DNA from: Schmidtea nova
Taxonomy: Eukaryota
DNA: 64,000 nt
Direction of reading: 5' to 3'
NCBI GenBank assembly: GCA_044892505.1
Contig: CM097882.1
Span: 183,520,001-183,584,000, forward strand
Shown here: one piece after another, positions 13,328-41,586 of the stretch
Numbering within the stretch: the stretch's first letter is position 1
Layout of the letters: each line of letters begins with the position of its first letter
The notes under the pieces: model-generated
Seen by the model: only the letters and a program-made list of their open reading frames with translations
Database searches by the model: none
Told to the model about the DNA's origin: nothing
Made by a program: the position numbers and the translations under genes

Positions 13328-13370
13328 TAAATAAATTTTGAAATTGAATAATATGATTTGTGATAAAGGA

Positions 13371-14650: not shown

Positions 14651-15222
14651 AAGTAAGAATAGTGAACACTAGAATTTGAGTAATACGAGTAAAGATGATT
14701 AAGTAAACTAGAGATACAGTATGCATACAAGTAGAAATAAGAATAGGAGAAATTAGAGTTGATTAGTGAGAATAATGAGTAATGACGATATAATGAATAG
14801 TAATGAAAGGATAAAACTGAGTCAGGAGAACTCAGGGGAATTAAAGCGTCTGAGCGACAAATTTATTTGGGAGACCGAGGGAAAAGTAATGAATTTATTT
14901 GATAACGATAGATAATTATTACGACCATATAGATAATTGTTACCAGTGAATAGATAATTTAAATAGACTTAAATAAAGGGGAAACCGGGAATGGGGAAAC
15001 AATGGAAACCCAATAATGAGGAATAAAAGCGCAACGATAACAATGATGTATCGTTGAAGTGACTTTTTAATTTAGATATACGGAACAGAACAAGTCAAAA
15101 CAACCAGCCAATCAATCAGAATACGATAACAGAGAAACAGAAAAATTGATAAATTAAAGAAAAGTAAACCGAGATCAAGAACAGTTAAAAACCAAGAAGT
15201 TAATAATTCACAGAGAAATAAA

Positions 15223-18200
15223 TTGAGACCAAGAGCAGTTAGTGCTACAATTCAAAAAGTTGATAAATCACAGAGAAGTAAATCGAAACAAAGAGCAACC
15301 AGTGTTACAAAGAAAACAAATCCTAAAGGAAGTAAATCAAGAAGAGTAATAGTAGAAAAGTCGAAAATCGAAAACAGCAAATTTCCTAAAACTAACGAAA
15401 GTGAAACAGAAGAAAGTTCAAGTGAAACCTACGATAATTATAATAATACGGAAGCATCAGATAACGAGTCAATAAACACAGAAGAAGTAGAAGCAGAAAT
15501 TGATAATAATTCAAACGAAACGAATAACGAGCATACTAGTGAAACAAGAGGAAACGAGAGTAAAACGACACAAGACAGCGGAATCGAAATGAACGAACAT
15601 AAAGAAGAAATTAAAGATAAATTTACTGGAGAACCATTCAATGGAGATGCCAGCAAGTTAGAAACATTTTTAAAAGAATTTGGTATATTTGTAGAAGTAT
15701 GTAAATGGAAACCAGAAACGATAAGAAGCAGAATTCAGTTATATTTAAAAGACAGTGCGTTAGATTTATATTTAGAAGCTAAAAATTCGGACGATCAACT
15801 CGATAGTTGGGAAAAGATAAAGAATTTTTTCCAGCAAACGTTTGGAATAAATAAAGTATTAAATGAAGCGTTTACAGAATTTTCAATGAGGAAACAAAAA
15901 GTTAATGAATCAAATGCAGTATATGCAAGTGAATTAAAGAAATTGGCTAAATTAGCATTTAATCAAAATAGTCCAATGAGTCCAGAATTAATGGCAGCAA
16001 TTTTTGTGGGGGGATTGAGAAGACCCGATATAAGAGCACAAGTTGGATGCCAAGGTTGTAAAACAATAGATGAAGCGTTGGAAATCGCTAACAGATTTGA
16101 ATTACATATGATCGGAAGTGAAGGAAGAATTTACCTAGCAATGGATACGACACAAAATGAACAAGCAATGAAGATAAACAATCATATCCCGAATTCACAA
16201 CAATTAAACCGACCACCACCTCAAAGGAGAAATGAGGGAAACAAAGTACAAAATTTCGGAAACCAAAATAATTATAATACGCAAGGACAGACAAAGCAAT
16301 ATCAAACCTGTGGAAAGTTAGGACATTGGCAACAAGAATGTTTCGTGAACTTAAATTGTAAAACGTGTGGAAGAAAAGGACATTCGGAAAATAGATGTTA
16401 CCAAAGATCATGTTATAACTGTGGACAACCAGGTCATATGGCAAAGAATTGCCAACAACAAAACAACCAGCAAAGGAATTGGTCGAACAACGGAAATCGA
16501 CAAAATTATGCGAATCAACAGAGTAACGGAAACCGTCAGAATTTTGAAAATCAACAGAGTAATTATAACCAGAATAAAAGTACCACCAAAGAAATACATT
16601 TATTACAAGAAGTTCAGAGATTGACAGAGTTAATAAATAATACACCGAGAGGAAATCAACAAACGAATCAACAACAAATGAATATGATGAGAAAAGTAGA
16701 AAGTGAAAATGAACGACTAAATCGAGAAAGTCAAGCACGACATGCTCAAGAATGGGCAAGAATACAAAGAGAAGACGAACAGAAACGACAGGAAAGAGAA
16801 CGACAACCATTGAGAATTAATATGATGAGAGCAATGAATCAAACAAGAGATAACAAAGAAGATATTGAACCAGAAACAAACCAGATAAACCCAAATCCGG
16901 AAGATGAAGAAAACCAAAAAGAAAAAGTACAAGAAAACGAAGACGTTATTAAACAAAAAAGGATGTTGGTAGTCATGCCAAACGATCATGTATTTCGATT
17001 TGAATATGATGAAAAAGAGGAAGTAGGAGTATTAATTAATAAAGTAAACAAGACGATTCCGGGAATGACGAAACTACCCCGAGAAGCATTTTTACAGACA
17101 GAAGACGAAGCAGCAATAAAATTGAAACCAACCGACATATGGAAAGATTTAGGAGTACCAATGAATAAAATGAAAGTCACAGTTATCCGGGAAATAGAAG
17201 AAAATAACGATGAAGAGAAATCAAAACCAGTAACAAAAGTCAAAAGTAGAGCATTGAAGATATTTGAAGAGAGAATCAAACAGAGAAAAGCAATGGAAAT
17301 AGAAAAACGAAGAGGCCAAATAGATGAATCAGAAAACAATGACAACAAGGAAGAAATACCACCAAAAAATGTACCAGATAAAGTAGAACAGACCGCACAT
17401 ATAAATATGTTAAGAAACTTAACTAGAGAATTTTCAGATGTAGAAAGTGACAGTGATGTCAGTAGTTTAGCAGGAGATATGCTAAAAGAACCAGAAAATG
17501 AAGACAACAAGATAGAAGTAGCGAAGACGCCAGAAAATATACAAATAAAAGAAGATGAAATTCAGAAACTATTAGAAAATGCGTTAGAAGTGATTTATAA
17601 CGAAGAATTTATTGATAAGAAGCGATATCGAAAATTTATAAGAGCAGTATTCCGAATGAACTACAAAGAACGGTTACAAAGTCGTGAAGTAGAGATATTA
17701 TCAGGATACGTCGTCAAACTATTAGATGAACCACTCCACGAATACATAATTTTAATAGAAATAAACGAATGTTCACCAAGAATTTGGATCAAATCTCCAT
17801 GCACGAACGAAATTTATCGATGGGTAGAAGACAGATTGGGAAGTTCATATAAAAACAAATTTATATATTCAGGAAATGAACTTGTAAGACGAGCAACGCA
17901 TTTGGTAGAAACAGGCATATGGCCAGGAGAGATAACAACATTATCAATATGCGACAATAAGAAAGAGGAAAATTTACAAGAAATCGCAAAGGAAGCAAAT
18001 ATGTGTTTTGAGATGAGAATTAAACCTCAGTTAGTAGAAAAGAAAGAAAGAATTCTCAGAGAAAATTTAAATTCACTAATAGAACAAATTATTCAACAAA
18101 TCGGCAAGAATAGAGAAGAATTAACGAAAACTGAATATGAGAAATTAAAACAATGCATCGAAAATATACGAGATACCAGCCATACGAGAGATTCGTCATA

Positions 18201-21200
18201 CAAGACTTGGAAAGTGATCGCGAAAATGGGAAAAGCGATGTTTAAACAAGGAGAAATTGGAGATTTAAAAATCAAAGTGAAATTACCAAACGAAGACACA
18301 AAAGAAATTGAGGTAATCGTGGATTGCACAATAGAAGAATTAGTTGATGTTATCAATGAGACTTTATTACAACGGGAAAAAGAAGACGAATTAGAAGACG
18401 ATATCATCATAAAATATAATGAACACGTACTAGAAGATCATGATGAGAGACGATTATATAAAATCGGTATATGGGATAATCACCAAACAATTCACGTTAT
18501 CAGAATGGATGATACGTCAAGAGAAACACCAAAAGACGAAAAAAGGAGACAAGAACGTCGAAGAGAAGAGATGCACAAACTAAGACAAATAATAGAAATT
18601 TATCGAAGATGGCAGATACAGCCAGAATGGGAAAATGTATTAGGAGAATTAAACTTCAACGAACGCCGAGTAACACCAGTAGAGAAACACTGGGATGTTA
18701 AAGAGAAATGCTGGAAAGCAAAAGGAGGTATATATGAAGAGGAATTTAGACCAGAAATGGAAGACAAATATGAACCAGAAATTAGAAGAGTTTGTATGGT
18801 GACAAGAAAAGTCATGCCAACAGATTTAGATGGACCAGAAACCGCAGCAATATGGTTAGAAACGCAAAGACGAAAAGCTGACGAACTTATCGAATTACTA
18901 AAAGGAAATGTACAAGGAAAAAGGCGAACGATCAAAGGATTAACCGAATTTTTCGTAGCAGGCGGCGAAGATATAATTAGTTTACGAAAAGTAGCAAAGG
19001 TAGTAGCAGAATATAAACGAGTTAACGAGTGGTGCCCAGAACAATTAGACAATGTAATCAAGAAATGGAGAAACCAAGAAAACTCCCAAGAACCACCGCA
19101 GAAAATACATTTAAGGATAATATATCCAGATCGAGAAAAAGAAGAGCTTTGGGTAAGATTAACTGAAAAGATTCGAGATGTTAAAAAGAGATTAAAATAT
19201 GAACCACCATTTCATCTACAACATCAAGGACGATCACTAGAAAACGATATGGAAATTTGGATAACGCCAGCACAGTTAGAACTGGCAAATACGTTAACAG
19301 TAGACGCAATAGCAGGTCAACCATTAAAACTTAAAGAGAAAAGAGTAAAAGAAAGCGGAGATACTCAGAATCTAAAGAAAACGATGCAAATAAGGCCAGG
19401 AACAAGCGCAAGACAGTATGAAACAACATCAATAAAAACCCAAGAAAGAACTCGACCACAACCATACGATACAGAAGAAATCTTAACAGACTGTGATGAC
19501 ATGCTAGAAGAATTAGCAAAATTGACAAAAGAAAAGGGCAATAATATTTTCGAAAGAGTACAAGAGTTACCCACAACGTCACAAGCAATCAATACCCAAG
19601 ATGAAGTTGAGCAAGAAATAGAGATAGAAGAAGTGAACGAAATCTCTGAAGAAGAAGCAAGAGGAGCAAATACAGAAAACGAACGATTAACACAAGAAAT
19701 GGAAAAATGGTGGGAACAGAGAAATAATGAACCAAGAGATGTTACAGAGGAAACTGGACGAGAAACCAGATTGATTGAAACAGGTACAACAATGGATAGA
19801 CGACCTAGAGGTAGATCAAAGACAGATCCAGCCAACGTAACCAACAAAACCAAAGAGGAAAGGAGACAAGAGAAATGGGGATTATGTTTAAAGAAACTCA
19901 ACAAAATAGCAGAAGCAAAAGACCAGGAAATAACGCAAAAATGTCAAGGTGAAGGATGGATATCAAAAACACTAATGGAAATATTGGCGATAATTGATCC
20001 AGAATTGAAAAAATGGTGGAGAATAAACGAAATAAGCGACAAGGCTAAAGCATTACATAGCGCAATCGCACCAATCTTACCCGAACTGATAAAAGAGAAG
20101 ACAAAATCAAGCCATTTAGATTGGCAATGGACCACAACGTTGATAAAGAGGTTAACTGAAGATGCAGAAAACGATAATAAATATGTGATAGCAATTGCGT
20201 ATACAATTTATAACTTATTAACATTGAGTAGAGGTAATCCAAAATCTATGGCAATAGAGAAACATATCAAAAATACGGCAAGCATCATAGCAAAAGAAAT
20301 AGAACCATACGTCATCAGTAAAGGAGGATGGGAAACATTTGCTAAAACGAATCAAAGAAACAGCCAAGCAAAGAATATGAAAAAGAAATTTGAAGAAATT
20401 TTAGGAGAATTAGAAAAAGAAAAGTCAGGAACAGGAAGTGGAAAATCTTCACTAAACCTGAATTCAATCATAATGATGATACTAATATGGCTAATTAGCG
20501 TTGAAGGAGCAACGGCGTTCGAAGTATTTGATTGCGACCAGATGGCATTAGGAGAAAAATATTCATTAAGAGGAACCGAACAATGCAAAGATGCAACTCC
20601 AACAGAATTAAAAGTATTACATAAAGAACAAATATACCACGTATATCAGGAAGCCGACTTAATAAAGACAACAGTTAATGAATGTAAAATATATAAAACA
20701 AGATTTGCTTTTTATTGTGGACATCGCCACTACTCTGCAATCGTAATGCCAGGAGCGGAAAGAGAAGCGATAATGTTACAAGGAGAAGATTGCAATAAAT
20801 TGTTCAAACATGGAGAAGTCGAAACAAGAGATCGAATAAAGATAAGAGGAAAAGCTGGAGTAATACTACAACAAACTTACTATGTAGCAGGAGCTATCAC
20901 AGGAGGAGAAGGTTACTGTCAAGGAGCAACATATCCAATATTTGGAGTACCAGCAACTAACATGGTAGTAATCGACACATATACGGTAGAACTAAAAGCG
21001 TACGAAGCATATTTTGACCCAGCAACAGGAGAAATGAAGACGTTATCAATGTGTAAAATTGAAGCCAGTACCTGTCAAACCGGTATGTCGACTTTAACAT
21101 ATAGAGCAAAAGCAAATGAATGCCAATTACAATTATTAAAGGAAGCAGAGTTCGACGAAGTACAAGGGAAAATCTTTCAGGAAGAAGATGATGATGAAGT

Positions 21201-22830
21201 AGCAAGAGGAAAACGTCTACAGGAGACAGTAAAAGGAGAGAAACCGTTCACCGCTAAAGTACAAGAAAAAGAGGTAAGGATGAGAGAGACGCCAACCGTA
21301 TTGGTTACATCAAACGCAAATATAGGAATGAGGTTTGTAAAAGGAAAACCGACATTAAAATGTGGTGTTTCTATGTTAGAAACAAATTATCCAGGTATTT
21401 ATGTATCAAGACAAGCAGCACCAAATGCAAAACCCAAGGTAGATACTACAGACATCAAATTACACGTATATTTAAATAACAAATTGGATTTTTTATTTCA
21501 TAAAGGTCAAGCATCAATGGAGAAAATATACTACGATCTCATTAACAACGATTGTATATTGAACAGAGAAATATTAAAGACGAAATTAGCAGTAGCAATC
21601 ACAAACCCGAATAGTGCTATGCCATTATTACCACTTAACGAAGGTCATTTTGGAAGAGTAGTTGGAGAAGTTATGTACGTATATATATGTCGAAAGACAC
21701 AGGCAAACGTAGCAACAACGACCAGAATACGACAAGGACAATGTACCAATGAATTGGAAATTGAATATAAAGGGAAAATAAGATATGTACAACCAGTGAC
21801 AAGGATCATTAATCCGGTCAGTTTTGAACCAAACCCTTTCAATTGCAGTAACGCATACGGACCACTATATCAGAAACCAGACGGAAATTGGGTCATGTTT
21901 CCGTCAAAATCAGAAGTACAACCACCTAGAGAATTCGAATTGATGCAACTTTCAAAAGGACGAAAATTTTCCAATATAGATGTAAATAACGGAGGAATTT
22001 ACAGTGCAAAAGATCTCGAAGCAGCACGACAAAATATATTATTTCCAGCTAGAAGAGAAGCGGTATTATCTAGCATTGTAACAATAACAGGAGGAACAAG
22101 TTATCAAGGAGGACCAAATTATGAATTATTATTGTCACCAGCACACTTTAGGAAAGCAACAGAAAATATGATGAAAGCAATGTGGGGACGATTTTTAATT
22201 TTCGGACAAATGATGGCCGGAATACTAGGTGTAATTTTAATCATACAAATAATACGAGTGATAATCACACAAATGCTAGCATGCTTTGATATTTATAAAA
22301 GAGAAAAGAAAGTTAATTGGAAATTAATAGCAGGATTTTTACCATTTTTAGCAAAAACGATGGTGTTACATGGTCACTCCAAAGATATTCACAGAATAAA
22401 ACGATTATTAAAAATACTGGCAAAAATGAAAGGAACGGATGAAGACGTGGGAAGAAAATTCAAAAAGATAATGACAGATGAACAAGCGAGACTACAATTA
22501 AAAAGAGAAAGAAAAGGATTATGGGAAAGAATAAGAGGAGATAAAACTCAAGACGATTCCAGTGATGACGATGATAATAATGACGACTGTGAAGGAGGAC
22601 AAAGGTATAGAAACCAAGCACCGCAATATAACGACAAGAATCCAGCAGAAGCATGGAAATGTCACGCACCTCCACCAACAATGTATCAAGAACCACTACA
22701 GGTATCAGGACACAGAGCAATGCAAATGATGCCAATGACAATTTTATATCCAATTATACCAGAAGATTTTAAACTAAGACGATGTAGAAGTATGGATCCG
22801 CAAGACGATTCACTCACAATTGCAGTCATG
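15223..22830 (+). CDS. Polyprotein, 5' part: Gag CA + zinc knuckles, 3-4 ubiquitin-like domains, Bcl-2-like domain, class III envelope glycoprotein; interrupted at 22830 by the Maverick
   Basis: CA-like FTGEPFNGD...FLKEF...SWEKIKNFF...RKQKVNESNAVY; knuckles 16300-16452 (CKTCGRKGHSENRC, CYNCGQPGHMAKNC; the first has Y for the first Cys); BH2-like YVISKGGWETF 20308-20340; signal + FEVFDC at 20518; TM 22192-22266. Start uncertain: track start is TTG, frame open from 15130, first ATG at 15589. Confidence 0.9.
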
Positions 22831-23484
22831 AGTAGGGGATAGTGAGGTTACGGAGCCACTTTTTTCACATAGCAACGGTTGCTAAGGTTATTACACATAC
22901 ATCATTATATAATCATCGAAGAACACGTTGCCAGGGTAATTACACACACATATATCAATTTATAGTCCTAGTGAAATATGTTGCTAAGGTAAACACACAC
23001 CAATGTATTTTCTTCGAGGAAACTGTTTCCAGGGTAAATACACACAATAGGGTGACTTCCCTGAGGACCTTGTTGTCTGGGTAAACATACATACATACAC
23101 ATCAATATATAATTCTTACTGATAGATGTAGTTAAGGTAACTACACACAGCAATATATAGTCCCCGAGGAAGATGATGTCAAGGAAAATACACACAACAA
23201 TATATAATCCCCGAGGAACCTGTTGCCAGGGTAAACACATATCAATATATAATCATCGAGGAACCTTTTGCTAGAGTAGACACACACATTAAAGTATTGT
23301 CTCCTTGGAACCTGTTGCTAAGGTAAATACGCCATTGTGTAACGGCAGTGACTACTGTTGGTAACATCAAAACATACAACACATTAATTATTACCCGTAA
23401 CACACTCGATAACATGTTTTTACTTAATCGAACGACGTTTTTGTTTTAATGTACTGACTAACATTTCGAGTAGTTTTTTATTAA

Positions 23485-23670
23485 TTGATAATTTTTGATA
23501 TATTATATAATTTTTGTAAAATGATCTTTAGAAAATCGAATATGAGAACTTTGAAAACGGATGAAATGAATGCGAGAATTGTGACAATAGTCGAAATTTT
23601 AAAGACGATTCTACAAGAGCAGATGAAATTTAATAATATTTGTAAACAGAAACAATTATTTTTACATTAA
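23485..23670 (+). CDS. Small Maverick ORF convergent with PolB (mirror copy 35270-35455 on -)
   Basis: Peptide TLKTDEMNARIVT...LQEQMKFNNICKQ recurs as TMKTDGINSRIVT in the copy at 1-60 and LQERMKFIIICKQ near 59480-59535; true start uncertain. Confidence 0.45.
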   Translation: MIIFDILYNFCKMIFRKSNMRTLKTDEMNARIVTIVEILKTILQEQMKFNNICKQKQLFLH

Positions 23671-23852
23671 ATAAAAATATTGACACAAAAAAAAAATGAA
23701 AACCCTGAACAATAAAACCGTTTGAAATCTTGTCAATACATAAAACTTTAAAAATAATTAAACATAATAAACTAAAGAAATATAAAACTAAATATAATGA
23801 AACCAATTATTTTTTAACAAAGTTTTATTCAATACAAATCTGAATTGGATAT

Positions 23853-26800
23853 TTAATTTGAATTGAGAACTGGATCTGAAACTGGAACACCAACCTGATC
23901 TTTTGATTGGTCTATAAACGAGCCACATCCCTTATAATATCCGTATGCAAGACTTTCATTTTTATCAACCCAAAGTCTTTTATCATCAAGATTAGTCAAG
24001 GCAATTTTCGAAAACTTATTAGTAAAAATTTGATGATTTTTACTCACAAATCGAGACTGCTCTACTGAAACTATAGTATTATTTCTATAACAATCAAGAT
24101 AAGACCGATGCTTCAGTTTAGTATCTTTCAAACAGAGGCCTTTAGCCTTTAAACATTCCTTATCACCTAAAAGACTATAACATTTAGGTCTAAGAAAAAC
24201 CCATTCCTTATATTTATGACCCTTATTTTCGTCTTTAAACTTTCCTATAACCGAATCAAGTTTTTTCGAATATAAAGAATGACTAGGGTCGTAATTCGAT
24301 GTATCCAAAAGACAATCTCTTATCATGGCCGGTAAAAGAATATCTAACCTACAATTTCTAATCTCCAAGAAGAAAGAATCGGTGTCACCAGCAACGATGT
24401 TAATTTCGCAGTTGAATTCATTACGATATTTTTGTAACTCTTCATACTGCAGCTGGTACATCCTAAGTTTAGATAAATCCAGTACAGTTTGGCCAATGTA
24501 GCTGGGTCTATCTAAACACACAGAGTCCTTATTAAGCAAGACAGAAATTAGGTCATCGTCAATTCTATAAGTTTTTCTAAAGGTAGGTTTTGAAGTATAT
24601 GTAATCAGTTTTGATGCTGAATTACATAGTCGTAAATTAAGTCGTTTTTTAAGATTTTCAACCGTTTTCCCATAAAGACTATTATTCTAGAGTTTGTAAT
24701 AGTTTTTATCTAAAGCTGTAGAAGATGCTGCCCTAAGTTCAGTGTTTGTATCTATATATTTTTTAAAAATGGGTTTCTGATTGTACTGAACAGCCCGATG
24801 AACTCGTGTTATTTTAACACCCAAAGAAACAAAAAGCTTGAGAAGCCTCCAATGAACAACATAGTTGAACTTTGGATAATGCGTCAGCATTAACTTCTCA
24901 ACTTTTGAACCCGGAGCACACATTTTCTCTGCCGCTACTGGAAAGTCATTTAATTTATCGTGAATTTCTGAAGGGATTTCAAGATCCACTTCAAAAGTCA
25001 CGCCATAAGTCAAAATAGCCAAATCAACATCCATTAATTTAATTAATTTATTTAATTTATTTTGATCTGTGATCCAACTAAATTTACCGTAAGGTAAGTT
25101 TTGACTTAAAGCCCACCCGTATAAATTATTTATGTCAATATATAAAAGTTCAGTCGTTTCGGAGGATACTACATGATGCTTGTTGACAAATGTCAAACCA
25201 CCACGGATCCCCCCTTCGAAAAAATTATAAATCTCCATATCCTGGAGCAATTCAATAGGTTCATCGAAGGTAATAAGCGCTGAAGCCCACGACATACCTG
25301 GAATACCCAAGAAATTCAAAGGCTCAAGTCTATTGTGAGCTATAGATTTAGCCCTAAACTGTTGAAAGAAATCAGCAAGAAGAAAAACATCCAGTTTAAG
25401 GTAGACCATCATATAGTCACAAAGAGTTTGACACTGGGTTTCCCTCCAAATAACTAATGCCTTGTCGTATTCAGCCTGCTTAACACCTTTCCAGATTGGT
25501 GGCAACTCATAAGTGTTGTTAAGAATTTCTAAAGATGTTGCAAAATCATAAGGAAAAATACCCTTACAGTCAACAATAGTCCCGGTGAATTCAGATCTAG
25601 TCAAAGGCAAACAAGTAAGAGTCTTAACAGCGTCATTTAAGCTAGAATTTACAAACTGACAAGAATCGATGAATTTAATGGTTAAATCACCGACCCTTGC
25701 TGATAAAGTTAAGAATTTTTCACTGGTTGTAGGAATACAAGAAATTTTCCAAGTTTTGAAATTAGCCAAACCATATTTAAGAATATGATGCAAGTCATAA
25801 CCCTTTAAATTATGAAAAATAACGGGTAAAAACTTGTATAACCGACGGGATTGATTACAAGAATTACAAGCAGCTCCCAAGAATTCACCAGTGTAATGAT
25901 CATGGTCTCTGACTGGTTGTACTAAAGTTTTCCTACAAAGATAACAAATAGTAGCAGAGTCAAAAGATTGTTGATTAGCCGATGTCATAAAAAGAGGTTT
26001 CTTGTAATTAGTTCTATAAAAGGGATAAACAATAGTTTCAGAAATATTACTAATTTCAGTAAGAAAATTAGTAACGCAATCAAGACCTAAGAAACTCTTG
26101 TAAATCTTTTCTCCAGTAAAGTAATTTACAAGTAAAAGACCGGCAGATATTGGGACATGTCTTTGAAAGTACTTATCATCAGCAGGTAAGATTGCCTCAA
26201 AATCGGCGTAAACAACAAAAGGTGGGGTAATTGTTTTGCCCCAATTACTAAATTGTAAATCTTTATTTCTAGGCAGAGTATAAAGAGTTGTGCCTAATTG
26301 ATTTTTAGCACACAACTGTTGATGACAATCGAATGCTTCCTGTTTTCGAAATCCATTCAAGCATCGATGACACCATATACTTTGTACGCGAGCTACAGAA
26401 AGAGATCTATTGTCGTAATTTAAAAGCTTATCAAGATCGGTGACTGCAATATAATGATATGCATCACAACTTTCCAACAAAATCAAGTTAATAGGAGTAC
26501 CGTCAATAACTTTCGACCTATGAATTATATCGACACAAGGATGTTTAAAAACTTCAGGGTCTTCCAAGGTATCAAGAAGAGCATCTTCATCATAAGATAA
26601 AACATTAATAGCAAGTCCAGGATTTTTAGCCTCAAATTTTGGAATATTACAGAGTCTCATGGGCATTTCTGAAGGGTCAAAGACAAGATCCGAAAGATTA
26701 TAATTACTTGTCCTATATCTGTGTCCATCTACATCATCATATTTCAAAATAGCTAAAATGCTATAAATAAAACACAAGTCGTCAGAATTTCTTACATTTA

Positions 26801-27572: not shown

Positions 27573-30356
27573 TATTTCAATACATTTATTGTCATGAATT
27601 GATGATCGGCAAAAATTCGGAAAAAGTTTACCTTAAATATAAAAAATAATTAAAAATATGAAAAATAAATGACAAGTATTTTAATATTAAAATTAATGTC
27701 ATTATACAATAATTAATTAATAATTACAATAATAAAAATTTAATTAAATAATTTTAATATTATGAAAAATAATATTAATTAATTTCAATTATTATATTCT
27801 TAATTATAATTGTTTTAATAATAAGTTTTACTCAAAGATGTGAAATTTAAATTATTTACAAGTAATTTAAAAATATTAATTTAATATAATAATTTTCATA
27901 TAGAACATATTATTTGCTATGATAGAAAATAAATTATTTATTAATAATTAATTTACAAAAACTTTAATTACTAAAACATTATTAAAAAAAAAAAATAAAT
28001 AAATAAATAAATAAAACAATAAGTAATAATAATCAATATTCAAATTAATTTTATATTCAAATTAATTAATTAATTATTATAAAAAATTAGAATAATTATA
28101 ATTAAAACTAGAATTGTTTTAATAATTAGTTATAAAATAAAAATTCTAATTCAAAAATTGTAAATAATTTTCAAAAATTAGTAAACACTACAAAACTAAT
28201 TAAAAACTAATTATTAATTTAAATAATATAGTTAATTATTTTAAGTTCTCATTAGTATTTATTAACTTATCAATGATAAATATTACAAATCTCTTTGAAT
28301 AATAAATAAAGATTATCCGTTAAATTACAAAATTGATAAAGAAAACTAATTTTATTTAAGTTTATTTACAAAGGTAATTAATTATAAATTGCAATCATTA
28401 AATAAATCGATACTTACAGTTATTTTCTTTTATCTTTTCATCGTTAAGTTTATTTTTCATTAAACTATCCATTGTTTCAGATGCTTCAACATTGTCACCA
28501 ATAACGTTGTTCATATTGTTGTCGACATCGTTGTTGTAATCATTGATCATGGTAATATCCATATTGTAGATGTTGTTGTTCATTTTATCTAAAATAAGTT
28601 GATTATTTAAAAACTTTAAAACAAAAATAACTTACCAAATTTAAATTGCAGTAAAAAGTGATTCTTAAATGAAAAACTATTGTTTATATACTAAATTCAA
28701 AAATTTTTAACCAATCAAATTCGAGGAAACATACACACACGTTTGTAAATACCACAGTGTATTTTATTTTTACAATTAAATTTTGTAAAATTATTGAACA
28801 CAATTTATTGTTATAAATATATGTCATCATTTAATGATAAATATCAATTATTTTTAAAATACAATGTAATAAATTAAGATTAATTTTAAAATTAAATTAT
28901 ACTAATAAATTATAAAAATTATTACAAGTAATTAAAATTAAATAAAAAAAAAATATTTAATTATTCGATAAATTGTAAATTAATTAAAATAAAAATTAAT
29001 TAATTAAAAGTAAACTAATTATTCACAAAGTTATTAGTTTTTACATAATGTATTACTGTAAAGAATTAGAATATAAATTGTTACAGTGAAAACACAATTA
29101 AAGTATCAATCAGCAAATAAAATCAATTATTTACAACAAAACCCATGTGTAACACGATAATTTTTAAATTTCTAATCAAACAATTTAGTGGAAAATTTAT
29201 ACATATAATGAAAACTCTAAAAAATTATTTTAAATTGTTCAAAAATATCAATAAAACATGTGTGCAACATGAAAAATGACTAATTTTTCCCTAAATTTTT
29301 TTTTGTGGGGGGGGGGGGGTAAAAAAAATTTTTAGAGGGGGAGGGGGGGTCTGTTCCTGTTCTTGGGCGCTCCCCCTACTCTACTATCAACATTTTTAAT
29401 TTTTCTTTTTTCTTTATTTGTGCCTCAAATTGAAATTATTCGTTTTTCTCGCTGTAACAATGTATAGACAGAATTTTATTCTCTACAAGATGGCCAACTT
29501 GAAAATTCAAAATGTTGTGATTTGCGAGCTGCACACGCGTTTTGTTGTTATTAATTGGTTTTCTTTGATGTTATAATAAAGATAATGAGTTTTCACATTA
29601 ACAATGTATATTCAAAATTTAATTTCCTATAAAATGGTTTAAATAAAAATATAAAATTAGTCATTTTTCATGTTGCACACATGTTTTATTGATATTTTTG
29701 AACAATTTAAAATAATTTTTTAGAGTTTACATTATATGTATAAATTTTCCACTAAATTGTTTGATTAGAAATTTAAAAATTATCGTGTTACACATGGGTT
29801 TTGTTGTAAATAATTGATTTTATTTGCTGATTGATACTTTAATTGTGTTTTCACTGTAACAATTTATATTCTAATTCTTTACAGTAATACATTATGTAAA
29901 AACTAATAACTTTGTGAATAATTAGTTTACTTTTAATTAATTAATTTTTATTTTAATTAATTTACAATTTATCGAATAATTAAATATTTTTTTTTTATTT
30001 AATTTTAATTACTTGTAATAATTTTTATAATTTATTAGTATAATTTAATTTTAAAATTAATCTTAATTTATTACATTGTATTTTAAAAATAATTGATATT
30101 TATCATTAAATGATGACATATATTTATAACAATAAATTGTGTTCAATAATTTTACAAAATTTAATTGTAAAAATAAAATACACTGTGGTATTTACAAACG
30201 TGTGTGTATGTTTCCTCGAATTTGATTGGTTAAAAATTTTTGAATTTAGTATATAAACAATAGTTTTTCATTTAAGAATCACTTTTTACTGCAATTTAAA
30301 TTTGGTAAGTTATTTTTGTTTTAAAGTTTTTAAATAATCAACTTATTTTAGATAAA

Positions 30357-30522
30357 ATGAACAACAACATCTACAATATGGATATTACCATGATCAATGA
30401 TTACAACAACGATGTCGACAACAATATGAACAACGTTATTGGTGACAATGTTGAAGCATCTGAAACAATGGATAGTTTAATGAAAAATAAACTTAACGAT
30501 GAAAAGATAAAAGAAAATAACT
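30357..30522 (+). CDS. Probable upstream coding exon of PolB (mirror 28418-28583 on -)
   Basis: Flanked by a 47-nt GT-AG intron (30305-30351) and donor T|GTAAGT at 30523; acceptor TTAAG| at 31308 restores the PolB frame. Confidence 0.5.
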
Positions 30523-31367
30523 GTAAGTATCGATTTATTTAATGATTGCAATTTATAATTAATTACCTTTGTAAATAAACTTAAATAAAATTAGTTTTCT
30601 TTATCAATTTTGTAATTTAACGGATAATCTTTATTTATTATTCAAAGAGATTTGTAATATTTATCATTGATAAGTTAATAAATACTAATGAGAACTTAAA
30701 ATAATTAACTATATTATTTAAATTAATAATTAGTTTTTAATTAGTTTTGTAGTGTTTACTAATTTTTGAAAATTATTTACAATTTTTGAATTAGAATTTT
30801 TATTTTATAACTAATTATTAAAACAATTCTAGTTTTAATTATAATTATTCTAATTTTTTATAATAATTAATTAATTAATTTGAATATAAAATTAATTTGA
30901 ATATTGATTATTATTACTTATTGTTTTATTTATTTATTTATTTATTTTTTTTTTTTAATAATGTTTTAGTAATTAAAGTTTTTGTAAATTAATTATTAAT
31001 AAATAATTTATTTTCTATCATAGCAAATAATATGTTCTATATGAAAATTATTATATTAAATTAATATTTTTAAATTACTTGTAAATAATTTAAATTTCAC
31101 ATCTTTGAGTAAAACTTATTATTAAAACAATTATAATTAAGAATATAATAATTGAAATTAATTAATATTATTTTTCATAATATTAAAATTATTTAATTAA
31201 ATTTTTATTATTGTAATTATTAATTAATTATTGTATAATGACATTAATTTTAATATTAAAATACTTGTCATTTATTTTTCATATTTTTAATTATTTTTTA
31301 TATTTAAGGTAAACTTTTTCCGAATTTTTGCCGATCATCAATTCATGACAATAAATGTATTGAAATA

Positions 31368-34300
31368 ATGGTAAAATATTACCGATATTCGTATAAAGGA
31401 GTCACGTTTTTTATATGTCCCGTATGTAAGACCACTCAAAATTCTACTTTTTTGAACTTTTATGATGACCATAAGGATCATTTAAGGAAATTTAGATCTT
31501 CGAAAAAATCCATTTTTAATTTAACAATAGATAATAGTGATATCAATGTTATTAATAATAAAAGAAAAATCCTTATCGATAATCCACTACCTACAAAAGT
31601 TAGAAAATTAAGTAATATAGTTGACGAGGTAATATCCGATATGAAAATTCTTTCCGACTCTGACACAAGTTTTAATAATGACATTAACACCATAGATGTT
31701 CAATATGGTGGGTCCCTTCTTCCTAACGTTAAATTTGATTTGAGAAAATCTCACGCTGTTGTAAAAATGGATGTTTCTCACTTGGTTTTGAAAACTTTAA
31801 TTTTACCTGATATTTTAATTAATAAACTAAATAATGTTATTAATGAGATGGGTTCAGTGAAAATACAATTTTGTATTGACGTAGAGTTTGAAAAAGATGG
31901 AGAATTTCAATCCTTCATCATTTCAAATTCTGCGAGACCTATGAGTGATACCTTTTTTGACGAGGGTATTGCTCTTTTAAATGAAAAAATAGCATTAATT
32001 AACGATAAAGGGAGTAATTGGGTTATTAACAAAGTTAATGAAATCCATTTCGTTGTAACTAAATTTGCTCAAATATCTCGATTGAGTGGACGTAGTCACA
32101 TTCAAACCCCTCAATCCTTACAGTTAAAATATTGTACAGTAAATGTAAGAAATTCTGACGACTTGTGTTTTATTTATAGCATTTTAGCTATTTTGAAATA
32201 TGATGATGTAGATGGACACAGATATAGGACAAGTAATTATAATCTTTCGGATCTTGTCTTTGACCCTTCAGAAATGCCCATGAGACTCTGTAATATTCCA
32301 AAATTTGAGGCTAAAAATCCCGGACTTGCTATTAATGTTTTATCTTATGATGAAGATGCTCTTCTTGATACCTTGGAAGACCCTGAAGTTTTTAAACATC
32401 CTTGTGTCGATATAATTCATAGGTCGAAAGTTATTGACGGTACTCCTATTAACTTGATTTTGTTGGAAAGTTGTGATGCATATCATTATATTGCAGTCAC
32501 CGATCTTGATAAGCTTTTAAATTACGACAATAGATCTCTTTCTGTAGCTCGCGTACAAAGTATATGGTGTCATCGATGCTTGAATGGATTTCGAAAACAG
32601 GAAGCATTCGATTGTCATCAACAGTTGTGTGCTAAAAATCAATTAGGCACAACTCTTTATACTCTGCCTAGAAATAAAGATTTACAATTTAGTAATTGGG
32701 GCAAAACAATTACCCCACCTTTTGTTGTTTACGCCGATTTTGAGGCAATCTTACCTGCTGATGATAAGTACTTTCAAAGACATGTCCCAATATCTGCCGG
32801 TCTTTTACTTGTAAATTACTTTACTGGAGAAAAGATTTACAAGAGTTTCTTAGGTCTTGATTGCGTTACTAATTTTCTTACTGAAATTAGTAATATTTCT
32901 GAAACTATTGTTTATCCCTTTTATAGAACTAATTACAAGAAACCTCTTTTTATGACATCGGCTAATCAACAATCTTTTGACTCTGCTACTATTTGTTATC
33001 TTTGTAGGAAAACTTTAGTACAACCAGTCAGAGACCATGATCATTACACTGGTGAATTCTTGGGAGCTGCTTGTAATTCTTGTAATCAATCCCGTCGGTT
33101 ATACAAGTTTTTACCCGTTATTTTTCATAATTTAAAGGGTTATGACTTGCATCATATTCTTAAATATGGTTTGGCTAATTTCAAAACTTGGAAAATTTCT
33201 TGTATTCCTACAACCAGTGAAAAATTCTTAACTTTATCAGCAAGGGTCGGTGATTTAACCATTAAATTCATCGATTCTTGTCAGTTTGTAAATTCTAGCT
33301 TAAATGACGCTGTTAAGACTCTTACTTGTTTGCCTTTGACTAGATCTGAATTCACCGGGACTATTGTTGACTGTAAGGGTATTTTTCCTTATGATTTTGC
33401 AACATCTTTAGAAATTCTTAACAACACTTATGAGTTGCCACCAATCTGGAAAGGTGTTAAGCAGGCTGAATACGACAAGGCATTAGTTATTTGGAGGGAA
33501 ACCCAGTGTCAAACTCTTTGTGACTATATGATGGTCTACCTTAAACTGGATGTTTTTCTTCTTGCTGATTTTTTTCAACAGTTTAGGGCTAAATCTATAG
33601 CTCACAATAGACTTGAGCCTTTGAATTTCTTGGGTATTCCAGGTATGTCGTGGGCTTCAGCGCTTATTACCTTCGATGAACCTATTGAATTGCTCCAGGA
33701 TATGGAGATTTATAATTTTTTCGAAGGGGGGATCCGTGGTGGTTTGACATTTGTCAACAAGCATCATGTAGTATCCTCCGAAACGACTGAACTTTTATAT
33801 ATTGACATAAATAATTTATACAGGTGGGCTTTAAGTCAAAACTTACCTTACGGTAAATTTAGTTGGATCACAGATCAAAATAAATTAAATTAATTAATTA
33901 AATTAATGGATGTTGATTTGGCTATTTTGACTTATGGCGTGACTTTTGAAGTGGATCTTGAAATCCCTTCAGAAATTCACGATAAATTAAATGACTTTCC
34001 AGTAGCGGCAGAGAAAATGTGTGCTCCGGGTTCAAAAGTTGAGAAGTTAATGCTGACGCATTATCCAAAGTTCAACTATGTTGTTCATTGGAGGCTTCTC
34101 AAGCTTTTTGTTTCTTTGGGTGTTAAAATAACACGAGTTCATCGGGCTGTTCAGTACAATCAGAAACCCATTTTTAAAAAATATATAGATACAAACACTG
34201 AACTTAGGGCAGCATCTTCTACAGCTTTAGATAAAAACTATTACAAACTCTAGAATAATAGTCTTTATGGGAAAACGGTTGAAAATCTTAAAAAACGACT

Positions 34301-35087
34301 TAATTTACGACTATGTAATTCAGCATCAAAACTGATTACATATACTTCAAAACCTACCTTTAGAAAAACTTATAGAATTGACGATGACCTAATTTCTGTC
34401 TTGCTTAATAAGGACTCTGTGTGTTTAGATAGACCCAGCTACATTGGCCAAACTGTACTGGATTTATCTAAACTTAGGATGTACCAGCTGCAGTATGAAG
34501 AGTTACAAAAATATCGTAATGAATTCAACTGCGAAATTAACATCGTTGCTGGTGACACCGATTCTTTCTTCTTGGAGATTAGAAATTGTAGGTTAGATAT
34601 TCTTTTACCGGCCATGATAAGAGATTGTCTTTTGGATACATCGAATTACGACCCTAGTCATTCTTTATATTCGAAAAAACTTGATTCGGTTATAGGAAAG
34701 TTTAAAGACGAAAATAAGGGTCATAAATATAAGGAATGGGTTTTTCTTAGACCTAAATGTTATAGTCTTTTAGGTGATAAGGAATGTTTAAAGGCTAAAG
34801 GCCTCTGTTTGAAAGATACTAAACTGAAGCATCGGTCTTATCTTGATTGTTATAGAAATAATACTATAGTTTCAGTAGAGCAGTCTCGATTTGTGAGTAA
34901 AAATCATCAAATTTTTACTAATAAGTTTTCGAAAATTGCCTTGACTAATCTTGATGATAAAAGACTTTGGGTTGATAAAAATGAAAGTCTTGCATACGGA
35001 TATTATAAGGGATGTGGCTCGTTTATAGACCAATCAAAAGATCAGGTTGGTGTTCCAGTTTCAGATCCAGCTCTCAATTCAAATTAA
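31368..35087 (+). pseudogene. polB: Protein-primed PolB, right arm (two internal stops)
   Basis: Mirror of the left copy; shared TAG at 34251-34253, private TAA at 33891-33893, G>R at 33822, V>A near the C-terminus. Confidence 0.95.
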
Positions 35088-35718
35088 ATATCCAATTCAG
35101 ATTTGTATTGAATAAAACTTTGTTAAAAAATAATTGGTTTCATTATATTTAGTTTTATATTTCTTTAGTTTATTATGTTTAATTATTTTTAAAGTTTTAT
35201 GTATTGACAAGATTTCAAACGGTTTTATTGTTCAGGGTTTTCATTTTTTTTTTGTGTCAATATTTTTATTTAATGTAAAAATAATTGTTTCTGTTTACAA
35301 ATATTATTAAATTTCATCTGCTCTTGTAGAATCGTCTTTAAAATTTCGACTATTGTCACAATTCTCGCATTCATTTCATCCGTTTTCAAAGTTCTCATAT
35401 TCGATTTTCTAAAGATCATTTTACAAAAATTATATAATATATCAAAAATTATCAATTAATAAAAAACTACTCGAAATGTTAGTCAGTACATTAAAACAAA
35501 AACGTCGTTCGATTAAGTAAAAACATGTTATCGAGTGTGTTACGGGTAATAATTAATGTGTTGTATGTTTTGATGTTACCAACAGTAGTCACTGCCGTTA
35601 CACAATGGCGTATTTACCTTAGCAACAGGTTCCAAGGAGACAATACTTTAATGTGTGTGTCTACTCTAGCAAAAGGTTCCTCGATGATTATATATTGATA
35701 TGTGTTTACCCTGGCAAC

Positions 35719-36290
35719 AGGTTCCTCGGGGATTATATATTGTTGTGTGTATTTTCCTTGACATCATCTTCCTCGGGGACTATATATTGCTGTGTGTAGT
35801 TACCTTAACTACATCTATCAGTAAGAATTATATATTGATGTGTATGTATGTATGTTTACCCAGACAACAAGGTCCTCAGGGAAGTCACCCTATTGTGTGT
35901 ATTTACCCTGGAAACAGTTTCCTCGAAGAAAATACATTGGTGTGTGTTTACCTTAGCAACATATTTCACTAGGACTATAAATTGATATATGTGTGTGTAA
36001 TTACCCTGGCAACAGGTTCCTCGGGGATTATATATTGTTGTGTGTATTTTCGTTGACATCATCTTCCTCAAGGACTATATATTGCTGTGTGTAGTTACCT
36101 TAACTACATCTATCAGTAAGAATTATATATTGATGTGTATGTATGTATGTTTACCCAGGCAACAAGGTCCTCAGGGAAGTCACCCTGGAAACAGTTTCCT
36201 CGAAGAAAATACATTGGTGTGTGTTTACCTTAGCAACATATTTCACTAGGACTATAAATTGATATATGTGTCTGTAATTACCCTGGCAAC
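35719..36290. repeat. 295-bp tandem duplication (second copy with an 18-bp deletion) in the right TIR only
   Basis: AGGTTCCTCGGGG at 35719 and 36014; the net +277 bp explains the arm-length difference (59217-58940). Confidence 0.85.
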
Positions 36291-36392
36291 GTGTTCTTCG
36301 ATGATTATATAATGATGTATGTGTAATAACCTTAGCAACCGTTGCTATGTGAAAAAAGTGGCTCCGTAACCTCACTATCCCCTACTGTCATG

Positions 36393-39300
36393 ACATCAAA
36401 TACAGGACCAGTATTAACTACAACCATAGAAATAAATGGAAAAGAAATAGAAGCGATGATAGATACAGGAGCAAACATTTCGGCAATAGATATTAAATGG
36501 ATACCGCAAGAACAGAGACAAGAAGTTGAAAGAACAAATGTTCATGTAATCGCATGTAGTAAAGAGATAGTTGAAGTTGCAGGAAGATGGTGGGTGAAAA
36601 TACGACACCAAAATATAGAAATCGAAACGTATGTAGCAGTAATACCGGCTTTAAGTGTACCATGTATAATCGGAACAGATTTAATGCCAACACTATTCAA
36701 AGAAATAATCATCGATCTTGGAACAATGAGATTAAAGGACAGAACAAGGAAAATAGGTGCCATGGAAGCAAAAATAATGATACCGGAAGAAAGAATCATG
36801 ACGAGATCACAAACCATCAGAATAAATATGCTCAGAGCGGAAGAAATTAACACAACTAGTCAAGTAGACAGTGAGAAAATCGATGTTGACAAAGAAATCG
36901 TACGAAAAGCCAAAGAAATAAACGAAAGATGGGAAATCAGACAAGGAAAAGACGTTTTATGGGATATACGACAAATAATCAGTGATTACGCACGAGGATG
37001 CCCAACCAAACCAATCATAATAGAATTACTAAAGAAAATACCAGAGATACTCGTATTACAAGATACAGGAGGTGCAACTGCACTACACAATGCCATAAGT
37101 TGGGGTAAAACGGAAAAGGTAAAAGAATTCTTGAAAATAGCAAAAGAAACGAATCAAAATCTAGACATTGTAAATCGAGAATTAGAAACGCCAATGATGA
37201 CAGCAACACTAAGCTTAGCAGATAAAAAAATAGTAGATATGCTGATCAACGCAGAATTCAACTGGACAGCTCGAAATAGAAGAGGAAACACAGTTTTAAA
37301 CCATGTAATAATGAGTGAAAATCAAATGATACTAAAACATATAACAACCAACCTCACATGGGAAATCGATGAATTAATCAAAGGAGAAATTATGAAGGAA
37401 GCGATTCGGAAAGGAAACACTAAAACCATATGGAAACTAATACAATGGAAATGGCCGAATAATAAAATATGGGTATTAGATATAAACAAAGAATTTAGCG
37501 AAGGACAGAACGCGCTATTGAGATACTTATTAGAGTTTACGTGCGATCAGAGAACAATGTTAGCACTAATAAATAGAGGAAAAATAAATATTAGTAAAAA
37601 CGAAGAGGAATATAAACTAGAAGTCGAAAAGAAAGCGTTATTCAGGAAAATTTGGGTATGGTGTCAAAAACAACTACGCAAAGACATAAGCTACAAAAAT
37701 CTAAATGATTTCCAAGAAAAGTATAAAACGATAATAAAGGAATACAAGAAGCTAGTGGAGATATTAAACGATCCAGAAAAATTTAATCAAGCGATAAATC
37801 AGAAAGAAGAAGAAAGTAAAAGGATACTCACACCATTGTTCAACGCGAAAATAGATTACCAAGAAAGATTAGATGCAATACAGAAAAAAGCAAAGGAACT
37901 ATTACCAGAATTCAAAGATACAAAATACGCCTTGGAAATACTTGGCGCAATAGTAGAAAAAGTACACGCGTACGCGAAAGGAATATATAATGGAAACGAT
38001 ATAATAATTATAAAAAGAGAAATGCCAGTTGCATTTTTACTAACTAAAGAAAGAATAATGCCGATTCATAGAGCATTGAGAGCAGGAAAAGACAGTAAAG
38101 TAATCGAAATCGCAAGATTAATGCATCAATGTGGATGTGATATGAATATGATAGACGAAAAAGGAGACACCCTCATGGTATACGCAGCAAGAGCAAAAAC
38201 AAAAATCAAAGTATTAGAAGAGTTATATAAAGCAGGTGCAGGATTAATCGGGAAAACGGTCAAAGACAACTCAATATTAGACGTGACATTATTAGGTCCA
38301 AACTGGGAAATGTTGAATTTCATTAAAACGATAACAAACCAAGAAGAGATAGATTATTTAACAGAAACCGTAAAAGGACCAAGCGTATTGACAATGATGC
38401 AAAACATCAAATTGACAGAAGAAGTATTAAACTGGAAAATACCAAATACAAATAAACCAGCATTTAAAGTTAACAAGTTTATGGAGAATAATCGAAATTG
38501 GTGTATCCAAAGCGCACTAATAACTTATATATGGCCCGAAATTGTAGAAATTTTCATGAGAAGAGAAGATCTGAGATTTACAAACAAGCCCAAAGAAACG
38601 GAAAAGGTAGTTAAATGGAAAGAATTGATGAAAACACACCTTCAAAGATGGATAAAAGCCAAGAAAGAAATTATACAGTATCAGTTAGACAACAAAAAGA
38701 TACCCGAAGATATAGAATTCCAAGAATTCGAAGCAAGTAACTTAACATCACTATATTATGCAAAACTAATAGAAACAAGTAATGTCGAGGACGACATTTT
38801 TAACGAGCCAGGGAGAGATAATAATACTGACAATGATGATGACGATGAAGAAAACAAGGACGACGAGAGAAATAAAGACGATGATGATGAAAACAATCAC
38901 GGAAATCCAGATAACCACGAACAAACCAATAAAGAAGACGAGAATCAAGAGAGAAATACAAAGAACCACGAATCCAAAGAACAAAGAGAAGACAACCCTA
39001 AAAACAATCATGAAAAGAAAGGAACAAGTTACAGAAGGAATCCATTATTCAGACCAGAAGTATTAATGTTCGCAATAATCATAACACTTATGGGACAATG
39101 TGAAGCAACGAAACAAGAGATATCAGTAGAAATGGAAGTACCAATACAAAAAGCATCAACACAAATAATGAATTCAAAGGACATTGAACAAGTATGTTGG
39201 GTAAAAGAGAATGAAATTCTCGGAGATAACAACCTATTACGATGTATAATTCCAAACCCCGATCGAAAAACCATAATAATAGACGAAATGGATATGGAAA

Positions 39301-41033
39301 CATGGTACAGAATATGTACAATCAGAAAACCCAAAGACGAAAAATCACACAAAACAGTTACATGCCAAGTATACAAGACACCCAAAGTCCGATACGAGTT
39401 CGCCAATGGAATAGACCTTCCAGGACCAATTTATTTTAAAATAACAAGAGCACCAGCATCTAGAAAAGTCTTACAACAACCAAGAACCAAGACAACAATA
39501 CCAAGTACAAGGAATACAACGGATAAACCAGAAGCAAACGGAGGAAATACAACGGTTAAACCAGAACCAAAAAGACGAATGAAACAAACCACAAGAGTAA
39601 TCTATAACTCCAAGTTGTTATGTATAGCACTTATTATGACAATACTGAAGCGATTAGAAGAAGGAATAGAGATGGATACAATGACATTAATAGACATGGA
39701 AGAGACACAAATGACAAATCAAAAATGTTGGTTTAGAAACGATGAAAAATTAGAATTAAAGGAATCAAGAGAAATTCAGAAACTGGAAGCGAGTAAAACG
39801 AACAAAGTAATCAAGATAATAAAGATAAAAACAGACAGAATTCATAAACTATGTTTATTGGAAAAAGAGAGAAACAAGAAAGGAATAACCAATTGTAAAA
39901 CATTTCAAGCAGGAAAAATAATAACGTTTGCAAGAAAAATGGGAAAAGGAAACAAACAGAATTTCCAGAAATTAACCATAACGTTAGAAATAACGGGAAT
40001 AGAACAAAACGTAAACGGAGTATGCTGGAGAAAATACGAGAAAGAAACGAATAAACCTAAATCATCACAATGTCAAACAATCAGAGGAACAACTGCAGTA
40101 CAAATAAAAAGCTTAGAAAGAAATCAAACTTATGAAATATGCCTAATAAAGGAAAATGATCAAATAACGAAAGAAGATTAAGAATGCAGAATATACAAAA
40201 CACCGAACAGAGTAAAAACCAGTAAAGCAATACGAAAGAATAAAAGACAACAAAAACCGAAGCATACCACTACCGAAAGTCAAACAGAACCAGAGAGGAA
40301 AACCTCAGCAACACTTATACTTTGGAAATTAGATGACAAAACAGTGGAAATATGTTGGACAATGATCAAGAAATACGAAGAAAGACAACCACAACAATGC
40401 GAAAAGATGAATAAAGAAGAGGAGATCAGAATTCAGAACCTACAATTGGACAAACAATACGAAATATGCGCAATAGAAAAGGCAGATAAATTTGGAAACC
40501 AGCAAGAAAAATGTGGAAACTATTATACACCGACAAATACAACGATCAAAGGAAGAATCAAGAAACTGACCTTCGGAGAATTGAAGCAAACAACGAAACA
40601 AATGGAAAACGAGGAAACAATAATAGATTCTTATGCCCAATGGAAACCAGAGAAAGTAATTCAGGAAGTCAAAAGGAAACAACAAGAACGACAACAATTG
40701 GAACTCAAATTGAAAGGACAATATGGACCAATAATCAATCAGAGCAAATTCACCCAAATCAATGTTAACAAGCAAGGAAGAGAACTAATTGGAGTAGGAA
40801 TACTGGCAGTATGCGTACCAATAATAATAATAATATTATCAATAATATGGTTATGGGACATAATAAAAAAGAAACCAACCAGACAATGGCCAGATATAAA
40901 GATCATGAATTGTAAAATCAAAATACCTGAAGAAGTGAAGAAAGAATTCCAAAGAAGAACCAAAGGCAAAGAATTTTGGAAGCAAATAGAAGACGAGGAG
41001 CGACACGATGAAAAAGCAGTGATGATAGTATAG
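36393..41033 (+). CDS. Polyprotein, 3' part: retropepsin, two ankyrin clusters, acidic linker, internal signal peptide, four FN3-like repeats, TM; one in-frame TAA at 40179-40181
   Basis: Joins in frame to 22830 (...IAVM|TSNTG...); MIDTGANISAI...CIIGTDL; GATALHNAISWG, GNTVLNHVI, GDTLMVYAA; frame stays open from 40182 into track ORF 40344-41033. Confidence 0.9.
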
Positions 41034-41490: not shown

Positions 41491-41586
41491 TCAAATTGTA
41501 GCGGAAAATTGTATATATGTAAAAATAAAACTCTAGAAAAATCAAAAACAAAGAACAAATCAATGTATGTATATATTATTGTAGAA

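Follow-up and report, generated by a model that had tools for sequence, protein, structure and literature searches.

The element and its interrupted reading frame

We analyzed a window of 64,000 nucleotides from Schmidtea nova (assembly GCA_044892505.1, contig CM097882.1, positions 183,520,001 to 183,584,000, forward strand), which contains one long terminal repeat (LTR) element at 9673–47774. Our preferred reading, held at a probability of about 0.72, is that the copy in the window is dead, has lost pol and belongs to a Burro-like family of enveloped gypsy-type elements. The family exists in four in-frame forms; on this reading they likely use one another's proteins for replication and, through template switching in shared particles, likely exchange flanking sequence. 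The LTRs, the polyprotein and its interruption are arranged as follows.

9673–12466, + strand: 5′ LTR with TG...CA ends and a 4-bp target duplication directly outside; two mismatches and one gap relative to the 3′ LTR
12476–12493, + strand: primer-binding-site-like sequence, identical in sister copies and in a sister family; presumably of tRNA-Pro type
15130–22830, + strand: 5′ piece of the polyprotein frame, with N-terminal extension, Gag, candidate Ubl region, Bcl-2-like domain and Env
15589–16458, + strand: Gag capsid region and three CCHC knuckles (Retrotrans_gag E 1.5e-5; zf-CCHC E 7e-9)
17365–22755, + strand: optional env cassette (candidate Ubl region, Bcl-2-like domain, Env, Env tail), kept here and missing from 24 sister loci
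19810–20445, + strand: weak Bcl-2-like domain (profile against Bcl-xL, E 0.003)
20446–22299, + strand: internal signal-like segment, Env ectodomain (Monjiviricetes fusion glycoprotein family) and transmembrane anchor
22831–36386, no strand assigned: palindromic Polinton-like insert with two inverted pPolB genes, both broken (DNA_pol_B_2 E 9.3e-26)
36393–36760, + strand: retropepsin (Pfam RVP E 8.4e-9)
36760–36790, + strand: junction at which pol-bearing sisters carry a reverse transcriptase (RT)-RNase H-integrase cassette, absent here
36795–38801, + strand: ankyrin-repeat region (Pfam Ank_2 E 2.4e-11 and 5.5e-4)
39042–41033, + strand: four FN3-like repeats behind a second signal-like segment, the first repeat being followed by a short hydrophobic stretch, and terminal transmembrane segment; stop at 40179–40181
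44981–47774, + strand: 3′ LTR, 2.8 kb, paired with the 5′ LTR

Paired TG...CA LTRs, the target duplication and the primer-site-like sequence are Ty3/Gypsy features, and in pol-bearing sisters Pfam places Gag with CCHC knuckles ahead of protease, RT, RNase H and integrase, in this order. Pfam scans of the window and of a pol-bearing sister returned no BEL/Pao-specific families, and the class assignment is based on these features. The window copy gave no Pfam match for RT or integrase, and RT, RNase H and integrase are all missing from it.

The polyprotein frame of the window copy lies in three pieces, 15130–22842 (2570 codons), 36336–40181 and 40182–41033. A preliminary description of this DNA had recognized the first break, which is a 13,556-bp insert (22831–36386) flanked by a 6-bp target duplication at 22825–22830 and 36387–36392; the insert flanks are contiguous in all ten sister copies first fetched. 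The same description treated the 3′ part as one frame of 1546 codons, which is contradicted by an in-frame stop at 40179–40181, occupied by a sense codon in all nine aligned sisters (one of the ten did not align). With the palindromic insert and this stop, the window copy is dead. The preliminary description overlooked this second break and the loss of pol.

Four in-frame forms of one family

The comparison uses natural sister copies from the same genome. Uninterrupted sisters, which the preliminary description had proposed to look for, were found: 6 of 15 window-type copies maintain one open frame of 4108–4140 codons that takes in Gag, the last transmembrane segment and everything between them. 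A single Gag-to-tail polyprotein is thus encoded by natural copies and not by the doubly broken window copy. The order Gag, Env, protease, ankyrins and membrane tail is real, because the insert flanks are contiguous, a sense codon stands at the position of the stop, and these six copies are open. The proposed ~4080–4100 codons do not represent the full design. One of the ten sisters first fetched contains about 1000 additional codons in frame between protease and ankyrins, encoding RT, RNase H and integrase, and RT matches led to pol-bearing copies without a 5.4-kb block that begins where Gag ends and stops shortly ahead of the protease. The full form is one frame of ~5100 codons, Gag-[Bcl-2-like, Env]-protease-[RT, RNase H, integrase]-ankyrins-FN3-like membrane tail, and the two bracketed cassettes, env and pol, are missing independently of each other.

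To type the forms, we searched for five junction patterns, tolerating a single mismatch in each, and tabulated their matches against one another by place. The initial tally of 6 full, 48 pol-less, 10 env-less and 13 double-deleted loci, with 8 unpaired, became 7 full, 53 pol-less, 11 env-less, 13 double-deleted and one unclassified locus out of 85 after the unpaired loci had been read. Hence 77 of the 84 classified loci, about nine in ten, lack the env block, the pol block or both. Continuous frames were found in 2/6 full (5115 and 5147 codons), 6/15 pol-less, 6/11 env-less and 5/13 double-deleted copies examined; the degenerate locus L065/L066 was excluded from this tally and from the selection tests. 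An assembly artefact as the source of the deletion forms was rejected, given dozens of loci on three contigs and joints that are present in short-read contigs. At L085/L086, the 3′ LTR of one copy runs directly into a second internal region, forming a tandem element.

The junction lengths are 5385, 5388, 3039, 3021 and 2973 nt, all multiples of three, a coincidence with a chance probability of 0.04 to 0.004 for three to five independent events. One of the five comes from a separate pol deletion, found in three older copies, and the junctions arose in at least three independent events. They sit in short microhomologies and their ends are not GT..AG; they carry fixed private letters that occur in none of the 17 pol-bearing copies examined or in none of the env-bearing ones, and each junction sub-variant is found both with and without the other cassette. 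Letters adjoining the pol junction have drifted in pol-less copies. Read from the sequences, the junctions are inherited microhomology deletions, not splices. Short-read contigs from one study (library type unspecified, possibly the source material) contain env joints in three of four runs and pol joints in all four. No GT..AG joint into env was found in the four runs, which, being available as contigs, carry no weight on splicing.

All four forms inserted recently. LTR pairs of five copies per class are 0–0.39% apart in the 19 of 20 pairs that aligned, the remaining pair lying in a tandem repeat with three mismatches in its 2.8-kb main block, and 4-bp target duplications match in 16/16 readable cases. 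Family copies are ~96–97% identical to the window, and as they thus differ by ~3–4% while their LTR pairs are 0–0.39% apart, most variation predates insertion. The ratio of non-synonymous to synonymous polymorphism (pN/pS) within classes is 0.04–0.23 in all ten modules. The fixation index (Fst) between classes ranges from −0.25 to 0.13, scattered around zero along the shared sequence, and lies beyond all 200 permutations only in the interval next to the env junction. By these sequence comparisons, the four forms share one gene pool.

A sister family serves as a natural control. Neither deletion junction occurs in any of its 84 copies, where both boundary patterns lie next to the protease pattern (matched by place, by eye; the check covers the two junction boundaries). 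Its Pol is 92–94% identical to that of the window family and its tail 54–58%; primer site, 3′ boundary sequence and LTR start are the same. LTR pairs of the sister family are 99.9% identical and so equally young, and one of four copies examined has an open frame, of 5140 codons.

Polyprotein domains and neighboring features

The domain order proposed earlier largely holds: Gag, Env, retropepsin and ankyrins are recognized by Pfam and the hydrophobic segments by hydropathy, with weak evidence for Bcl-2 and moderate evidence for FN3; the three to four Ubl domains it included were not recovered. Env matches Monjiviricetes_fusion (PF24664, E 4.9e-71). We take it to be a class III protein, a label that follows PMC13524379. 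The Bcl-2 likeness of 19810–20445 is weak but consistent, as judged from sequence profiles: single-sequence searches gave E 0.26–1.3, and the relative P0006 matches Pfam Bcl-2 at E 0.00096. For Ubl, the best Pfam value was E 0.03–0.04 for one candidate only, a profile search returned galectin as its sole match (E 0.5), and a fold model of the Ubl-Bcl-2 region, of low confidence with a mean predicted local distance difference test (pLDDT) of 32, found no fold match at E ≤ 0.001. Neither the FN3 region nor the Ubl-Bcl-2 region gave matches in word-based homolog searches. The tail repeats are moderately supported as FN3-like: a low-confidence model of the tail ectodomain of a natural copy (mean pLDDT 47) contains three seven-stranded domains, all top Foldseek matches to it are FN3 arrays (best E 4.8e-7), and its Atlas neighbors, as a lead only, are FN3 clusters at 0.83–0.85.

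Hydrophobic segments were located at 20446–20532, 22186–22299, 39042–39113, 39597–39650 and 40776–40874. By hydropathy, Env and the tail each have a signal-like segment in front and an anchor of their own, that of the tail being terminal, and a further short segment follows the first tail repeat; this short segment is also kept in the sister family. The multi-pass topology proposed earlier is a fair inference from the hydropathy pattern. Two internal signal-like segments would place Env and the FN3 tail in the lumen of the endoplasmic reticulum and leave Gag, protease, Pol and ankyrins cytosolic, and the Env signal may double as a tail anchor for the Bcl-2-like domain. The chain would then be cut by signal peptidase and retropepsin. 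Nine similar hydrophobic motifs, in Gag and the pre-Env region, at both protease ends, before integrase and before the ankyrins, look like retropepsin sites, and none was found in the predicted luminal parts of the polyprotein. Both deletions take out whole modules and leave a cleavage-like motif at the new boundary.

The first ATG of the frame is at 15589, and because the 153 codons upstream of it (15130–15588) are open in all rows examined, as they are in the sister family, the sequence suggests a non-AUG start. The start placed at 15223 by the preliminary description is TTG in 35/35 aligned rows; it was rejected as a proven start, as the 31 codons upstream of it are also constrained (pN/pS 0.25) and the frame is open from 15130.

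Outside the polyprotein, the element carries five accessory open reading frames (ORFs), one with a RING finger, one TRAF-like and three unassigned, all with pN/pS of 0.10–0.24 among copies.

11292–11885 and again 46600–47193, + strand: 197-codon ORF within the LTR (pN/pS 0.10 among 21 distinct rows); no family match in the Pfam scan
12830–13327, + strand: ORF with C3HC4 RING finger (Pfam zf-C3HC4_3 E 9.8e-12; pN/pS 0.13)
41491–42942, + strand: TRAF-like ORF with zinc fingers and MATH domain (Pfam MATH_2 E 5.9e-21, zf-TRAF E 8.7e-8; pN/pS 0.21–0.23)
43045–44788, + strand: two ORFs, one charged and helical of 368 aa, one of 189 aa with a hydrophobic segment (pN/pS 0.13 and 0.24)

The leader contains tandem arrays of 25, 41 and 45 bp at 13370–13561 and 14019–14632, whose copy number varies among sisters. 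Outside the element lies a 641-codon ORF (50252–52177, − strand), which by inspection we take to be a hAT-family transposase.

The insert in the window copy displays the Polinton/Maverick hallmarks of terminal inverted repeats, 6-bp target duplication and pPolB. Integrase, packaging ATPase and capsid genes are absent, each palindrome arm holding polymerase frames and two ORFs below 100 aa only; it is a non-autonomous Polinton derivative. The members of its family are giant palindromes of 14 kb whose ends are of Polinton type and whose arms, >99% identical, each hold one pPolB gene; relative to them, the window insert is shortened at the center. The palindrome was considered as an assembly artefact and this was rejected, since the other four loci fetched (among L125–L132) are palindromic too (4/4), and most of 40 scored loci have inverted pairs. 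Four more LTR-family copies (L012, L065, L068 and L075) are interrupted by or abut pPolB-bearing sequence, and further ends and fragments of the Polinton-like family lie in the window at 1–900 and 57494–59532.

Proposed mobilization in trans and comparison with known systems

The best reading of these data is that the deletion forms are semi-autonomous, mobilized in trans and reshuffled by template switching. As LTR elements, pol-less copies depend on RT and integrase supplied in trans, which would come from the 18 Pol-bearing loci or from the sister family. Co-packaging would permit template switching across the 470-bp protease segment between the two cassettes. Deletions would survive only in frame, because the part downstream must be translated, be it for protease and tail function or for avoidance of RNA decay. 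The 1:1:1 supply of Gag, Env and protease proposed in the preliminary description applies to each molecule and not to the family, where all 84 classified loci encode Gag, 60 of them Env and 18 of them Pol. Single-ORF enveloped elements have no obvious route to more capsid than polymerase. A likely side effect of the pol-less copies would be to raise Gag and Env relative to Pol where the single ORF fixes 1:1:1, and the 84, 60 and 18 loci would provide this stoichiometric benefit if equally expressed.

Several points weigh against this reading. The undivided, equally young sister family implies that the full design needs no helpers; with primer site, 3′ boundary and LTR start in common and Pol 92–94% identical, that family could also supply RT. 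The form counts, being based on patterns that tolerate a single mismatch, are lower bounds, and the "full" loci include a degenerate one that was typed by its junctions alone. Low pN/pS in deleted forms may reflect recombination import from full copies and is no proof of a useful protein. The cleavage-like motif was defined post hoc, both fold models (mean pLDDT 47 and 32) are of low confidence, and the expression, co-packaging and topology assumed here are predictions from genome sequence.

Pure defective-interfering parasitism is a serious although unlikely alternative, in which deleted forms contribute nothing, stay in frame only through escape from nonsense-mediated decay or through cis preference of Gag, and drive the family down. 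It would account for the 66 of 84 loci without pol, for the stops or frameshifts in many freshly inserted copies and for the drifted letters beside the pol junction, and the separate pol deletion in three older copies means that such mutants arise repeatedly. However, pN/pS is equally low in deleted and full forms, and the largest class still carries the 5.4 kb of the env cassette even though the family has a shorter form with both deletions. These data do not separate partnership from parasitism, as passengers can receive purified alleles by recombination.

Rather unlikely is a true division of labor, with env-less copies as the working Pol source, pol-less copies as the working Env source and full copies mostly as recombinants, similar to a bipartite retrovirus. 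Only 7 of 84 loci carry both cassettes, and open frames are rarer in full (2/6) than in env-less (6/11) or pol-less (6/15) copies. Presence of env and pol is negatively associated (6/48 versus 10/13, Fisher p 0.004, copies not being independent), which may however be a founder effect. Shared variants have synonymous to non-synonymous ratios of 60:2 in pol of env-less and 72:13 in env of pol-less copies, but purified alleles are importable from full copies by recombination. Moreover, the 13 double-deleted loci are pure passengers that thrive, and the sister family succeeds undivided. A bolder version, which we regard as doubtful, is a functionally segmented, reassorting system: env-less genomes would give RT and integrase, pol-less genomes Env, the Bcl-2-like domain and extra Gag, the copy ratio would replace frameshifting or splicing in setting Gag:Env:Pol, and a second, FN3-type surface protein would partner the class III fusogen, for attachment or for immune modulation.

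That the forms mix through ectopic exchange between copies already inserted, by gene conversion or recombination, rather than through co-packaging is improbable: ~85 loci at 96–97% identity offer substrates, but the near-identical LTR pairs and the 16/16 target duplications date the mosaics before insertion, with short internal conversion tracts possible. Retrotransposed splice isoforms of the full element, as a programmed setting of stoichiometry, would explain the removal of whole modules with the frame kept and, through repeated production by many masters, the near-zero Fst, but are very improbable and largely refuted by junction ends that are not GT..AG and lie within microhomologies and by fixed private letters that fresh splicing cannot yield.

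Relatives with a comparable layout were found among 1.84 billion proteins, where the natural Bcl-2-Env-protease stretch matches long polyproteins at 28–36% identity; the nearest Env matches are similar polyproteins, followed by glycoproteins of 650–700 aa. Six distant relatives have Env, protease and RT in one chain, and four of these six have an additional signal-like segment and hydrophobic anchor after integrase; their tails do not align to the window-family tail at E 0.001. This kept signal-ectodomain-anchor module points to a second surface protein in the clade. P0001, P0002, P0003, P0004, P0014 and P0151 contain two to six retropepsin-like domains per polyprotein.

In env-less endogenous retroviruses, in-frame deleted intracisternal A-particle (IAP) subtypes and defective interfering genomes, deletion forms outnumber the full element and need trans factors. 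As a rule, one block is missing in these systems, and we know of no free reassortment of two blocks among them.

An Env inside the polyprotein, presented as new in the preliminary description, is already published. Burro/GYPSM1 elements of dugesiid planarians, described in 2019, are giant gypsy-like LTR elements with env in frame between gag and pol (PMC6431247). Like Burro, with one ORF of ~4900–5100 aa, the present family has Gag with CCHC knuckles, a BCL2-like domain, protease, RT, RNase H, integrase and ankyrins, with env in frame between BCL2 and protease; Burro env matches mononegavirus fusion glycoproteins, and its MATH/TRAF cargo lies within the polyprotein or in an accessory ORF, here in the downstream TRAF ORF (PMC6431247). 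Unlike Burro, at >30 kb, a pol-bearing copy here is about 27.6 kb by arithmetic, and owing to this difference in length we call the family Burro-like, not Burro. Of the other Burro features, the Ubl/SUMO-like domain ahead of BCL2 corresponds here to the weak candidate region given above, and for the dUTPase-like domain between protease and RT and for BIR there was no Pfam match in scans of the window and of a pol-bearing sister. The Burro section of that paper mentions neither an FN3-like membrane tail nor in-frame deletion classes (PMC6431247).

GAG-ENV-POL errantiviruses with an Env of herpes simplex virus (HSV) gB type, reported in 2026, are known from Nematoda, Bryozoa and Platyhelminthes in the accessible part of a survey (PMC13524379). 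They share with the present family a gypsy pol, a chuvirus/gB-like env between gag and pol and many recent copies, a likeness in gene content and order. As far as that part of the source describes it, the survey's LTR step left out LTR pairs >14 kb apart, and the words "fused," "fibronectin," "deletion" and "Burro" do not occur in its main text (PMC13524379). The Anakin element likewise combines LTRs with a chuvirus-type glycoprotein, but on a BEL/Pao backbone and, in the portion of the report available, with no giant cargo-laden ORF (PMC7642597).

The layout therefore adds just one more member to a published group, and the family structure matters more: what is new is the four-form family. 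No prior report of four reassorting in-frame forms was found in the literature searched, whose scope did not include subscription papers, the original Burro paper or supplements. Within one genome, four in-frame forms that recombine with one another can be counted next to a sister family that is undivided. This natural experiment opens to test whether retroelement deletion derivatives act as cheats or as partners, and also how a multipartite genome might begin. The nearest comparison is with the cooperative, semi-autonomous LTR complexes of wheat, Wilma/Sabrina/WHAM and Cereba/Quinta, which also include derivatives without RT and integrase; according to the accessible parts of these studies, the derivatives keep a gag or gag-protease ORF, are mobilized in trans and are proposed protein donors (PMC9744471, PMC11302176). 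The wheat partners, as described there, are long-diverged families, whereas here two cassettes, one of them env, reassort within a single 96–97% identical pool, with all four combinations active.

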